From IMG/VR virus record IMGVR_UViG_3300033145_001156, positions 1-64,000 of that record: a stretch of DNA of 64,000 nt; one strand, 5' to 3'. The DNA is from a virus. Below are positions 1 through 22,678 of this stretch, piece after piece. The notes beneath the pieces were generated by a model. The model did no database searches and had not been told where the DNA came from. It saw only the letters and a program-made list of their open reading frames with translations. The position numbers and the translations under genes are program-made. Numbering within the stretch: the first letter of the stretch is position 1; every line of letters starts with the position of its first letter.

Positions 1-87
1 GGACAGGGGCCGATAGAGGACGTGTACGCAGCATTGGAGGCGCTGGAAGTAGCGTGCCAGGACATCATGCCAGAATGAGGAGGATGC

Positions 88-453
88 ATGCCACCATCGA
101 AATATGCGAAAGACATCGAGAAGATCAAGACAGCCCTGGCCGGGATAGTGCCGCAGGTGAAGTGCATCCCGGCGATCAAGGAGGCCATGTCGGACATGCG
201 CGTCGAGATGGCCGCGGTGGTGACGAAGATAGACCTGCTCCACGACAGCTGCCCGTACACCGGGGACATCGCGCTGGCAAGGGTGAACCACAAGAAGCTG
301 GGTGACGTGGAGGCAGACATCAAGGAGCTGAGGGAGAAGCGCAGCGAAGACCGCATCGACAGCGTGAAGGTGCTCGCGAAGGTGGCACTGATCGCCGCGT
401 TCGGAGGAGGGACTGCCGTCGGGTTGGACAAGCTGCTTGAATTCTTTCACTAG
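88..453 (+). CDS. Small protein with coiled-coil region and C-terminal hydrophobic segment (possible lysis/membrane protein)
   Basis: ORF track; GAGGAGG RBS upstream; C-terminal VLAKVALIAAFGGGTAVGL. Confidence 0.5.
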   Translation: MPPSKYAKDIEKIKTALAGIVPQVKCIPAIKEAMSDMRVEMAAVVTKIDLLHDSCPYTGDIALARVNHKKLGDVEADIKELREKRSEDRIDSVKVLAKVALIAAFGGGTAVGLDKLLEFFH

Positions 454-2834: not shown

Positions 2835-3149
2835 ATAGACAGATGAGGGACACGCAGACACAGAGGAGAAAGCAGATGACAAAGCAGGAACAGGAAGCAA
2901 CCAAGCCAAAAGCATATTATACACTAAGTGAGGAGTTCGGGCAGGGAGTGGCAGAGACATACCTGAGTAAATGCAAACGAACAGTCATAGAATTCACGGG
3001 TGATGTGATGTATTTTGGCACGCGCGAGTCACATGATTATAGACTCCTAGTAGCTACCGGCAAAACCAGAGAAGAGCGCGATGCAGTCCGCAAGATCGAC
3101 TGGGCAGCGATCAATGACGAGATGGTGAGGCACACAGCGGGGCATTGAG

Positions 3150-18284: not shown

Positions 18285-18421
18285 GCCCAGAGTATACCAC
18301 GAACGTCGTTTTGGCGCAAGTTTGTCTGCCAATATGTCGCAACTTTACAATATTATCCGTAAATATATCCCCATAAACGCAAAGTAAAGTAAACTCATCG
18401 TGAAACTCGTGCTAAAAACCC

Positions 18422-18450
18422 TTGACAATTGTAATATTATGTGGTATAAT
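18422..18450 (+). promoter_or_regulatory. Consensus sigma70 promoter (AACCCTTGACAA family)
   Basis: TTGACA-17-TATAAT with extended TG. Confidence 0.92.
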
Positions 18451-18606
18451 TCAACTAGAAAAGAGAGAGAAAACCTTAACAAGAAAATACACTCAGCGAC
18501 ACCGGACAAGATCCAGAACCACCACCAAGTAGGCGATGACCTAGAGAATCCCAAGAGGGCTAGGCCAACCGAAGTGGCAAGAGGGGGGAGGGGCTAACAA
18601 GGTGGG

Positions 18607-18787
18607 GAAGGCGGCAGGAGGTTGAGTCCTGCCAGATGCTCGGGTCATCAGACCGCTGCTAGGAACCGCCAACGTGGTGAGCCGATGTGGCGACGGCTGA
18701 GGGAACGTGAAACTCAGAAGGACGTCGAAGGTGAGTGGGAGCGCCGAAACGGAACTGGCGATGACCTGGGTATCTGGTAGGACTCAA
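18607..18787 (+). ncRNA. Structured leader RNA, copy 1 of GAAGGCGGCAGG element
   Basis: 28-bp helix 18622-49/18760-87 with four G-U pairs, overlapping a local hairpin 18613-33. Confidence 0.75.
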
Positions 18788-19180
18788 ACGAACTTATAAC
18801 CCTAAAGGAGAGAGTAATGAACATTCAGAGGAAATTGAGCAATGGGAACTGGACAGATACGGGAGAGTTCACTGATAGCTACATTAGTGATGCTCTCAAC
18901 AGGGAACCGATGCAGGCCGAATGGTTCAAGCGGGAACCACTAATGAGCAAGGCCGAGGTTCTGGATCACCTGGCCAGCGGCCAGACTCTCAAATATGATG
19001 ATGAGTGGTATGAGGAATTGAGAGACGCGGATGCAGCGAAGTGGCAGCCGAAACCACGTCGGGTCGTAGAGATGGTGCGATGTGATTGTGGGCATGATGT
19101 TCCAGTAGGAACGGCAATGTCATCGTCACGTGGGACATGCTGTCCAGACTGCTATGACAGGATGAGTGATTAGCGGTGAG

Positions 19181-19300
19181 GAAGGCGGCAGGGATTATGT
19201 CCTGCCAGAAGGTCATCAGCAGATTGATTGAGTTCAGCTATTAGTTTCGGCGGTTGGGGGACTGCCGAGGCACTGCTGGTGGTTTTCTGGTAGAATATAA
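19181..19300 (+). ncRNA. Structured intergenic RNA, copy 2 of GAAGGCGGCAGG element
   Basis: 28-bp helix 19195-222/19273-300 (G-U rich, one C-A), overlapping the local hairpin. Confidence 0.7.
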
Positions 19301-19676
19301 ATAAAAGACAATCCTAACAGAGCAAGAAGATCGGGGGGACTTTGTCCTCCATATATGCCGGTGCGGGCACAGAGACCCACCAGCCAACGAGACGTGATTA
19401 CCCAAAGTACCCGTGCTCGCGGGGAAACAGAGAAAGCGGGCTGGCACTTGGTGCGAAACCAGGGCGCGGCAGCAGCATATTTCACCAGTCATACGATTGG
19501 TTTGTAGAGAGGGTGGTCCGGGGGGTCGTGCCCCTGGGAGCTAAGGCCAGCAGGAGACGGGACTGCAATTCGCCGGGGGATGACACCCTGGATGGAACGC
19601 GGCGACGGGGAAGCTGGTGCTGGAAGGTGCGGGTAAAGAGGCTCGGTGGGACGCCACCCTAATCTAGGAGGAGAAT

Positions 19677-20036
19677 ATGAAACTGCTGACGAAGAAGTTG
19701 AAGAAGGCGTTGCCGGAGTTGTACAGCCAGGAGGAAGTGGAAGACCCGACGATCGTGGTCAAGTTCTTCCACCCGATGAGCAGCTGGAAGTGGTTTGCAT
19801 ACGAGGCCAGCGCTCAGTGGCTCGTGGACGGAGAGGTGGTCTACAGGGCGCTGAGTGACCCGGACGAATCGGGGGAGTACCTGGACACCACGTTCTTCGG
19901 GCTGGTGAAGGGGTTCGAGGAAGAGCTGGGATACTTCTCGCTGAAGGAATTGTCGGAGGTGCGAGACAGTTGGGGTTTGGGCGTGGAGCGCGACATGTAC
20001 TTCAATTCGGTTCCATTGTCTGAGGTAAGGAGTTAG
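19677..20036 (+). CDS. DUF2958-like protein
   Basis: [56 protein letters not shown]. Confidence 0.8.
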
Positions 20037-20410
20037 GAAGGCGGCAGGGATTGTGTCCTGCTGGAAGTCTGGCAGTGGGGATATTACTGGGATTGGTGAT
20101 GGGATTGTTATCAGTTATCGGGAGGGATGAACATGAATAAGATGACGTGGGCACACGCGATAGAGCTTGGGATACTGAGCGATGAAGCCAGCGCATACTT
20201 TGAGGCGCTAGAGGCCGAGGCGCGGGCGAAAGAATCCTTAACCTATGAGTACAGGCGCAGCTTTCCCAGCCCATATCCACCATACGCTGTTCAGTTACAG
20301 GATGGCGTAGCCATCGGTGCGACGGCCAATCTCTATGATGGCGCTGAGAATGAAGACCCCCGAACGTGGCGCTACTATCCCGCCGAGGCCGGGGTATGTG
20401 CTATCGAGTA

Positions 20411-20462
20411 GCTCGAAACGCCCCACGGGGCGTCCACCGGTGAGGCCGGTGCTGATGAGAGC
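20411..20462 (+). ncRNA. Hammerhead ribozyme, type II
   Basis: GCTC-GAAA-[CGCCCC ac GGGGCG]-TC^-[CACCGG tgagg CCGGTG]-CTGATGA-GAGC; complete core and three stems; intergenic. Confidence 0.92.
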
Positions 20463-22278
20463 AGACGGGAGGAGGAGGATGGTAACGAGGGAGCAGAACA
20501 GGCTGAACATCCTTGTGGATTTATACTTGGATGATCGGAGTATCCTGTCAGACAGGCAGAAGAACGCTGCCTGGGAGGAGATCAAGCGGCGCGATGCGCT
20601 GGGTGAGTTTTGGTCGGTCATGTTGCAGCGATGGGTGGGAGGAGATGATGCAACTACTACGGTGGAGGATACGCAGCGCGGATCCCGGCTGGCCAGAAGT
20701 GGAAGTGAGCGCGCCATCTGCTCAGGAAGCAGCAGAACAGGGCTTTGATTGGTATGAGCGCGTGGTTGTGCGCGAAGTCATGATGGATTCGCTCGGGCGC
20801 AAGAGAGGATTGGGAAAAGAAACGGAATGGCATAAGGAGGATAATCATGGCGTGGTCAGTGACGAGGCGGGCGACGGACGAGGATTACGAATTACTGGAG
20901 AAGCGGGCAGCGGCCTTCATCGGGCGACACCAGATCACGTGGCATGAAGGGGATTCGGCAGTCGGGGCAGTAGAGCTCGAGATTGAGTGGCTTCGGTTAC
21001 CCGATAGCAATGAATTCCAGCAGATGGAGGGCAAACGCCTGGAGCGTCTCTGGAAACGAATCTGCAACAGGGCGATAGGAGACGACGGGATCTGTTTCGG
21101 GAGTGTCGGGCATAGCGTGGATTAACATGTACAGCGCACGAGAGGAGCGCTATATAAGAGTTGCCCTAACGCCATGAAAAAACCAGCGGGGTGCGTAGAA
21201 AGCTGGGACGACTGGGCTTCGAGAATTCAGCGGTATCAGCGTATTTCATATGGCTGTGTCTACACGCACCGGAAAGTTGATCCTTCCCGCCAGCAGGGAT
21301 GCGGAAGTTGTCTTCAGTGACGGCCTAAATGTGGGTAGTGGGTAATGTAGAGTCCCGCGACTTCCTTCACTTGAACTAGACAAGTGCAGCATCATCCCTG
21401 CTGGCGAGAGTGATCAATAAATCAGAGGAGGAAAAAGTGATCAAGTATCATAGCCATAATGGGTTTTACAATGACGGGAATTCGTGTTACGTAACTGAGG
21501 ATCGGACACTCGATATTGAAGCTGGGACCCTGACTATTAAGTCGGTCGAGAGCTTGGGTGGGCAGCTTGCAGGTAACCACCAGTTTGCTCACAAGGAGAA
21601 TGTCACTGAGGAAATCCGGGAGGCTGTTCCGTTTTCGGTTGAGCAAGAAGATGCTGTTTGGAAGGCGCTGGAGCCGCTGGTGGAGACGGCGAGGAAGTAT
21701 CCGCATTTGGAGACGTTCCGGTTCTTCTCCGACAAGCACCGGTGGTTCGTGAAGGGTCGAATCGACAAGGCGGTCAGGCTGGCGGGGGATAGCGACTACC
21801 ACGGGGTGTATTGCTTGAAGGACGTGTTCGCGCTCCCGAAGCATGGCGTGGTATTGACGGCTTATTATGAGGACACCTATAAGCATTCGTATTGGAAGTT
21901 CAGGGTGGAATCGCTAGGAGGAGAAGGTGAAGACGCCATACATCGGGTTCAGCAATGAGACATTGGACAAGATGCCCACGGTCAAGGCGGGGACATTATC
22001 GAATGTCAGAAGTGCGGCGGTGAACATAGCGCGAAGGGCGTTGTACAAGAAGGCTGACTGGGAAAAGAAGGGTGGTTACAAGGCGTTTCATCGCAGTTTC
22101 GCAAATGCAAGCACTTTCACAACAGAATGACGTTTTCGACAGGATGCAGTTACACATCCTGAGCCTGGGGTACTACGTGGACCAAAAGGTACTGATCCTA
22201 GTACTCTTGTAGCGTAGAAACGCTACGCTTAGTGTATCCTGGGCTGAACCGCGCGCTTTGCGCGCACTACTTGGGTCG

Positions 22279-22387: not shown

Positions 22388-22649
22388 CTGAACCCATCGC
22401 GACGCCAGGAAAACAAGCGGCCATGGTCGGCGAATACGTGCATGGCTACGGCGACGATTCGGCAGCAGCGGGGGCTAGTCTCCCGCTGTCCGCCGAACAT
22501 GTTCGGTGTGGTAGCGCTCACGGATCCCAGGGGTGCCTACTACCAGTTGATAGCGTGGTGGTTCTAGACAGCTGCATAGCGACTTGGGCATCGGATGGGG
22601 GATCTGACATCATGTTCGGCGGGCAGAGTGGGATTAGCAATAGAAACCC

Positions 22650-22678
22650 TTGACAATTCTGTTCTTTTGTGATATAAT
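22650..22678 (+). promoter_or_regulatory. Consensus sigma70 promoter (AACCCTTGACAA family)
   Basis: TTGACA-17-TATAAT with extended TG. Confidence 0.92.

Follow-up and report, generated by a model that had tools for sequence, protein, structure and literature searches.

A repeated RNA cassette with a local hairpin and a long-range helix in the gaps of a phage operon

The operon and its repeated element

The phage record IMGVR_UViG_3300033145_001156 is complete, with a length of 105,622 bp and direct terminal repeats. Here, we analyzed its first 64 kb (64,000 nucleotides), which we refer to as the window. A promoter with a full consensus match and the next promoter of this quality, a sigma-70-type promoter with an extended -10 element (12/12) at 22650-22678, enclose a unit of ~4.2 kb (Table 1). 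A terminator scan between the two promoters gave no convincing candidate, and nothing at the copies of the element described here. The operon encodes small proteins, for which Pfam and PHROGs provided no functional assignment apart from DUF2958. Its promoter region recurs in the relatives L015 and L083.

Table 1 Features of the operon, in positions of the window
Feature	Position	Strand	Details
Operon promoter	18422-18450	+	TTGACA, 17-nt spacer, TATAAT, TG before the -10; 12/12 consensus match
C/A-rich leader before type-1 copies	18474-18606	+	Blocks invariant in five sequences (four metagenome contigs and the window)
Leader blocks	18493-18506; 18513-18523; 18590-18604	+	CCTTAACAA, followed by TCAGCGACACCGGA (18493-18506), CCAGAACCACC (18513-18523) and GGGGCTAACAAGGTG (18590-18604)
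Copy 1, segment and hairpin	18607-18633	+	Invariant GAAGGCGGCAG; stem 18613-18619/18627-18633, loop 18620-18626
Copy 1, long-range helix	18622-18787	+	Arms 18622-18649/18760-18787; encloses a 110-nt domain
ORF1	18817-19173	+	First operon gene; C-terminal Cys pattern
Copy 2, segment and hairpin	19181-19206	+	Invariant segment; stem 19187-19193/19200-19206
Copy 2, long-range helix	19195-19300	+	Arms 19195-19222/19273-19300; encloses an unrelated 50-nt hairpin domain
DUF2958 protein ORF	19677-20036	+	Second operon gene
Copy 3	20037-20075	+	Invariant segment; 8-bp hairpin 20042-20049/20056-20063; no long helix
Further operon ORFs	20127-20411; 20479-20748; 20847-21125; 21437-21958	+	
Type II hammerhead ribozyme	20410-20470	+	Rfam RF02276; 39.1 bits vs gathering threshold 37, E 7e-6 (local search)
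Unrelated closing helix, ~24 bp	21276-21418	+	~90-nt domain; gap before the gene at 21437; z -4.65
Unrelated closing helix, ~26 bp	22474-22638	+	~110-nt domain; operon end, just before the next promoter; z -3.96

Within this unit, the motif GAAGGCGGCAGG-N7/8-GTCCTGC has three exact matches, all on the plus strand (18607-18632, 19181-19205 and 20037-20061); the expectation from 100 shuffles is 0. Even at two mismatches, these are the sole copies in the whole 105,622-bp record, and a covariance model of the 45-nt core detected no extra copy above 19 bits in the phage genome. The three copies fall in successive gaps of the operon, each before one of its successive ribosome-binding sites. Copy 1 is placed within the operon leader of ~360 nt, with 29 nt between the end of its long helix and the ATG at 18817. 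Copy 2 begins 8 nt past the stop codon of ORF1 (19171-19173), and copy 3 starts at the base right after that of the DUF2958 ORF (20034-20036).

Copy 2 and the DUF2958 gene are separated by 376 nt (19301-19676) that contain no supported ORF and no Rfam match; the longest ORF there has no match in PHROGs, and the fold is weak (z -1.7). The first 22 nt of this region resemble the start of the leader in the metagenome contig L084 (AGACAA.CC.TAACA..GCAAG), though not significantly, and a comparison of the region with the leader gave no significant similarity either.

The gap following that of copy 3 is filled by a type II hammerhead ribozyme, which lies outside the repeat family; copy 3 and the hammerhead flank the ORF at 20127-20411. 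L084 also has a type II hammerhead that scores below threshold (25.9 bits, E 0.18; 71-127, minus strand), two genes past the cassette, at a position equivalent to that in the window. Towards the end of the operon, two closing helices of ~24 and ~26 bp have a cassette-like architecture with a different sequence. Thus, the operon repeatedly puts a ribozyme or a duplex of the size cut by RNase III before its genes.

Relatives and forms of the cassette

Relatives were sought with exact-pattern scans (20-nt exact matches), which yielded 49 loci from 241 million metagenome records and 45 from 185,579 genomes. Reading of the flanks revealed nearly all of these to be coincidental matches in coding sequence, terminators or P8/P9 of Bacteroidales RNase P RNA. 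The true relatives are four short metagenome contigs (L063, L083, L084 and L085) carrying five further copies, one or two per contig, and the element is identical in L084 and L085. Both folds are conserved in these homologs, which come from other samples. Among the 185,579 scanned genomes, no true copy was detected. In addition, blastn with 3 kb found no match in GenBank phages, a pattern scan of IMG/VR returned 11 matches that are all chance, terminators or tRNA-like, and two leader-based patterns had zero matches in IMG/VR. Nothing was found at the copies with Rfam, either at gathering thresholds on the whole window or at E up to 10 on 18300-20600. The cassette is a previously uncatalogued RNA element.

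Bacteroidales RNase P genes carry GGAAGGCGGCAGG-N9-GUCCUGCC, presumably in P8/P9, a coincidental match that could mislead pattern searches (L088, L092, L093, L096, L114, L123, L125, L126 and several metagenome loci). The cassette itself is not an RNase P RNA: the local alignment ends at 31 nt with a score of 33 against a shuffle maximum of 32, and no Rfam RNase P match was obtained. A comparison with CRISPR repeats, using the exact 20-nt search, gave the 45 genome and 49 metagenome matches at one per locus, none of them array-like.

Two forms of the element can be distinguished. Copy 1 belongs to the longer "type-1" form, which consists of the cassette plus a C/A-rich leader of ~130 nt. A short form beginning at the stop codon is represented by copies 2 and 3 and by the second copy of L083 (L083b). 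In the window, L083 and L084, type-1 copies immediately follow the promoter; in L063 and L085, they follow other genes. The leader was located at 2504-2620 in L063, at about 865-1001 in L084 (minus strand), at 1078-1211 in L085 and at 134-240 in L083. It has no Rfam match and no conserved reading frame, and its indels are not multiples of three. A coding role was rejected, as the homologs conserve neither the 52-codon TTG frame (18622-18780) nor an AUG frame of 8 codons nor the frames of the leader. The G-poor, C/A-rich composition of the leader is like that of a Rho-utilisation site or an unstructured ribosome landing pad.

The genomic context of the cassette differs between the phages. Each cassette precedes a different gene (five genes in five phages), and the identity between L084 and L085 spans CCTTAACAA through the Shine-Dalgarno sequence, which makes the cassette a portable module located immediately ahead of a ribosome-binding site. 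In L015 (81% identity) and L016, which hold the closest relatives of ORF1, a promoter of the same kind is followed by a short plain leader, and the element is absent. At 2880-3000, L015 contains the homologous promoter region and ORF1, with a plain leader of 35 nt where the cassette would be. The cassette was thus gained or lost as a whole. The element was present in none of 21 DUF2958 loci examined, a search for relatives of the gene at 21437 found none, and the ORF at 20127-20411 has a single distant relative in protein libraries. No gene is common to all five contigs, which are, however, short. Altogether, the three copies in the window are members of a small family of cis-acting RNA cassettes in a few related environmental phages.

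Paired structure and competing folds

Each cassette is built from an invariant purine-rich segment, (G)GU-RR-G-R-AAGGCGGCAG, a hairpin of 7-8 bp and a long-range helix of 22-29 bp, the outer part of which re-uses the loop and the 3' strand of the hairpin. In copy 1, the 28 bp of the long helix comprise 24 Watson-Crick and 4 G-U pairs with zero mismatches. The 28 positions of the copy 2 helix include 21 Watson-Crick pairs, 6 G-U pairs and one C-A (19201/19294). No other uninterrupted G-U-tolerant helix on either strand of the genome reaches this length, and the folding z-scores against shuffles are -5.7 and -5.3 for the regions of copies 1 and 2, respectively. The third longest, at 34281-34300/34362-34381, has 20 bp with 2 G-U pairs. 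In copy 3, the alternative pairing amounts to just 7 bp (20058-20064/20069-20075), and the minimum-energy fold is the local hairpin.

All six distinct copies with a distal arm form a helix of 22-29 bp around 39-110 nt of variable sequence. For a pair table, these six helices from five contigs, which are few and partly paralogous sequences, were anchored at the outer end. Standard pairs account for 125/132 anchored pairs (95%), and 15 of the 22 helix positions show at least two standard pair types, many via two-sided changes. Compensatory changes are also seen in the helices of L063, L084 and L085 that are orthologous to copy 1. Over the six helices, the deviations comprise 22 G-U against 3 A-C/C-A; for copies 1 and 2 alone, 10 of 11 deviations from Watson-Crick pairing are G-U and one is C-A. 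This excess argues that selection acts on the plus-strand RNA. Judged from these few, partly paralogous sequences, the element is a selected plus-strand RNA structure.

Conservation extends to the hairpin, which has at least 7 bp in 7/7 distinct copies. In the first copy of L083 (L083a), two hairpin pairs are changed on both sides (A-U to C-G and G-C to A-U), and the distal arm is matched to them. This single lineage is suggestive of co-variation of all three strands. Furthermore, the position m10, the G of CUGCC, always forms a C-G pair in the hairpin, and in the long helix it is found in G-U (four times) or G-G (twice), never in a Watson-Crick pair. Taken at the sequence level, the presence in all seven copies, the joint change in L083a and the behavior of m10 indicate that the hairpin, too, is under selection. 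Beyond pairing, ~18 nt are near-invariant among copies that differ elsewhere. The enclosed domains show no relationship from copy to copy, and one ortholog has lost half of its domain, so it is the helix with its flanks that is conserved and not the insert. The earlier note had described the three copies, both 28-bp helices with their bias towards G-U pairs, the differing domains and the shortened copy 3, all of which our analysis bears out. It had also considered the release of small RNAs as a purpose, which is not supported, given the divergence and partial loss of the domains.

The two folds were originally described as mutually exclusive. This holds for the outer ~12 bp of the long helix, formed by the 3' strand and the loop of the hairpin, which clash with the hairpin; the inner 10-16 bp are compatible with it. 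The relevant energy comparison is hence between the full helix and the hairpin plus an inner helix of 10-16 bp. Here, the full helix is predicted to be favoured by 0-3.7 kcal/mol in copy 2 (W2), L063 and L083a, with the helix state of copy 2 lying 3.4 kcal/mol below the alternative, whereas predicted values of 9-13 kcal/mol were obtained for copy 1 (W1), L084 and L083b. As the two states come out nearly equal in predicted energy in three of the six copies, the term "switch" used in the earlier note is a fair description.

When the hairpin is formed, pairing between the 5' GUGAG and the 3' CUCA is possible and is predicted to create a three-way junction. This stem between 5' tail and 3' end has a compensatory change in L083b (UGAG/CUCA to UAAG/CUUA) and an A-A mismatch in W2 and in L083a.

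A proposed role in transcript processing and its alternatives

The early transcript of phage T7 is cut by RNase III at five leader or intercistronic sites (PMC4858673). The best explanation for the cassettes, to which we assign a probability of roughly 45%, is that they are T7-like intercistronic processing sites of the RNase III type, in which the exchange between hairpin and helix would gate or resolve the cut. The full-length helix would be the substrate of a double-strand-specific endonuclease, the host RNase III, and the early transcript of ~4 kb would be cut into gene-sized mRNAs with defined 5' leaders. The hammerhead would presumably do the same cutting job in the next gap. With the hairpin formed, only the inner helix of 10-16 bp would remain, too short for RNase III, since helices of this length are below the substrate length of the enzyme. 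Once the distal arm captures the 3' strand of the hairpin, the helix would reach 22-29 bp, and this exchange could gate the cut. Where a copy starts within 0-13 nt of the preceding stop codon, a ribosome that terminates there would open the hairpin. Another possibility is that the hairpin re-forms once the cut is made, capping the 3' end of the upstream mRNA and freeing the downstream one.

Such a processing role fits the length of the helix, its position before the ribosome-binding site, the neighboring hammerhead and the precedent of T7 (PMC4858673). We further infer support from the host-type promoter without terminators, the hammerheads nearby and the two additional, unrelated helices of 24-26 bp. 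In line with this, a hammerhead in one gap and duplexes of RNase III size in its neighbors argue for cutting or insulating cistrons as the shared job. Against this role, a search of the phage genome for an encoded RNase III or double-stranded RNA-binding domain found none. Several observations are left unexplained by RNase III processing: the invariant 5' segment is conserved beyond the needs of pairing, and RNase III requires no sequence of this sort; copy 3 is entirely without the long helix, and 376 nt separate the copy 2 helix from the next gene, so that its leader would not be defined. The closest ORF1 relatives (L015 and L016) manage without the element, which counts against this role.

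The likeness to the T7 RNase III signals (R0.3, R0.5, R1, R1.1 and R1.3) comprises paralogous structured elements in the leader and in intercistronic gaps, an early polycistronic transcript made by the host polymerase, a location just upstream of the next gene and a double-stranded region of about two helical turns, compared with 22-29 bp in six of the seven distinct copies of the cassette. However, a T7 signal is a local hairpin in which an asymmetric internal loop determines the one cut, whereas the cassette helix closes over a domain of 39-110 nt and has no internal loop, just the non-Watson-Crick m10. The cassette also adds the conserved competing hairpin and the invariant purine-rich segment, and cutting is putative here. 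Long helices that close over a domain, as in the stems flanking precursor rRNAs, resemble the cassette more.

Without cleavage, the cassette could be a conformational switch or insulator that tunes mRNA stability or access to the downstream ribosome-binding site, or one that guides co-transcriptional folding by protecting the pyrimidine-rich middle strand against mispairing before its distal partner has been synthesized. We regard this as possible, yet unlikely. It would agree with the conservation of both folds and the near-isoenergetic state of three copies. Moreover, the strands freed in either state are Shine-Dalgarno-like (GGAGG, AGGAG, GGUAGGA), and the remnant distal strand of copy 3 overlaps the real Shine-Dalgarno sequence at about 20113-20120. 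A related design is known from the leader of the MS2 maturation gene and from hok mRNA, in which a local hairpin that is made first shares a strand with a later, more stable long-range helix, and this long-range pairing hides the ribosome-binding site. In the cassette, by contrast, a comparison of the copies revealed that the real Shine-Dalgarno sequence or start codon is consistently hidden in neither fold, and Shine-Dalgarno sequestration was rejected as its role. Since the distal arm would invade the hairpin from a toehold of 10-16 bp, a long-lived kinetic trap is also unlikely, and the unrelated long helices in the other gaps would be left unexplained.

Ribozymes flank single genes in prophages, for which processing into gene-length mRNAs was suggested (Perreault et al., PMC3088659), and the role of bacterial and phage hammerheads is still an open question (PMC6765202). 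The cassette occupies the same niche (PMC3088659), presumably for the same purpose, with hammerheads in the window and in L084. It could be asked whether the three-way junction of the hairpin state is itself a new class of self-cleaving ribozyme, with 5' GUGAG/3' CUCA, the hairpin and the inner helix as putative stems and the conserved purines on the junction strands. A new self-cleaving RNA is conceivable because associations of this type have led to ribozyme classes before (PMC6765202). Twister, twister-sister, pistol and hatchet came from phage-related operons, where ribozymes are clustered and lie on either side of single genes (PMC3088659, PMC6765202). Cassette and hammerhead on either side of the ORF at 20127-20411, the invariant AAGGCGGCAG segment, which pairing alone does not explain, and the one compensatory change of L083b in the closing stem would be in agreement with it. 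We nevertheless consider a ribozyme improbable. Known models are unmatched even at E up to 10, and the cassette has no Rfam ribozyme match or recognisable catalytic core and is dominated by a long regular duplex. In addition, the closing stem has an A-A mismatch in two copies, the junction strand opposite the hairpin is variable and the inner helix is absent from copy 3. Similarly doubtful is the broader proposal that the cassettes are either a new self-cleaving ribozyme or, somewhat less radically, a translation-gated RNase III switch, for which a terminating ribosome would license the cut, and that they would be interchangeable with hammerheads as gene insulators.

The invariant single-stranded segment and the hairpin might also be recognised as an operator by a phage or host RNA-binding protein, which would decide the fold. 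The ~18 near-invariant nucleotides across otherwise differing copies and the persistence of the hairpin in copy 3 without the long helix could be understood in this way. Its chances appear slim, as the loop varies in sequence and in length (6 to 9 nt), Pfam and PHROGs gave DUF2958 alone for the operon and no RNA-binding protein, and the five contigs, short as they are, share no common gene.

A selfish or structural repeat acting as DNA or single-stranded DNA was considered as well, either a MITE/REP-like insertion bounded by terminal inverted repeats or a linker through which genes are shuffled by recombination. Single-stranded DNA hairpins also tolerate G-T wobbles. Its absence from the nearest ORF1 relatives, which have a 35-nt leader instead, and its position next to different genes in different phages would be expected of such a repeat. 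REP, ERIC and Correia repeats are transcribed palindromes found after stop codons in operons, and some are reportedly cut by RNase III or stabilise the upstream mRNA. However, a host genome carries tens to hundreds of such repeats, oriented either way, whereas the phage genome has three cassettes, the related contigs have one or two each, and the scan of 185,579 species gave no true copy. Every copy has the orientation of the transcript, the inverted repeats change compensatorily instead of decaying, and the bias of 22 G-U to 3 A-C speaks against strand-neutral decay. A DNA-level repeat is therefore very unlikely, and a dispersed repeat of the REP/MITE type was rejected.

Finally, the cassette is not an intrinsic terminator or attenuator (the hairpin is followed by AGAUG, AGAAG or GGAAG without a U tract), its likeness to the hairpin ribozyme (GA/GUCCUG, ACCAG...CUGGUA) does not extend to loop A, whose positions vary, and it matches no class model or core of the known ribozymes (hammerhead, twister, twister-sister, pistol, hatchet, HDV-like and hairpin), as cmscan recovered the separate hammerheads only, with cutoffs of E up to 10 for 18300-20600 and E up to 1 for six related loci.

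If the cassettes are processing sites, as we tentatively favor, the operon would offer a compact system of ~2 kb for a direct comparison of ribozyme- and nuclease-based processing. Should the RNA turn out to cleave itself, it would constitute a new ribozyme class. The three-strand design, in which hairpin, shared middle strand and distal strand are combined and one pair is weak in one of the folds, is uncommon among the described bacterial processing sites and could be a natural template for conditional RNA insulators.
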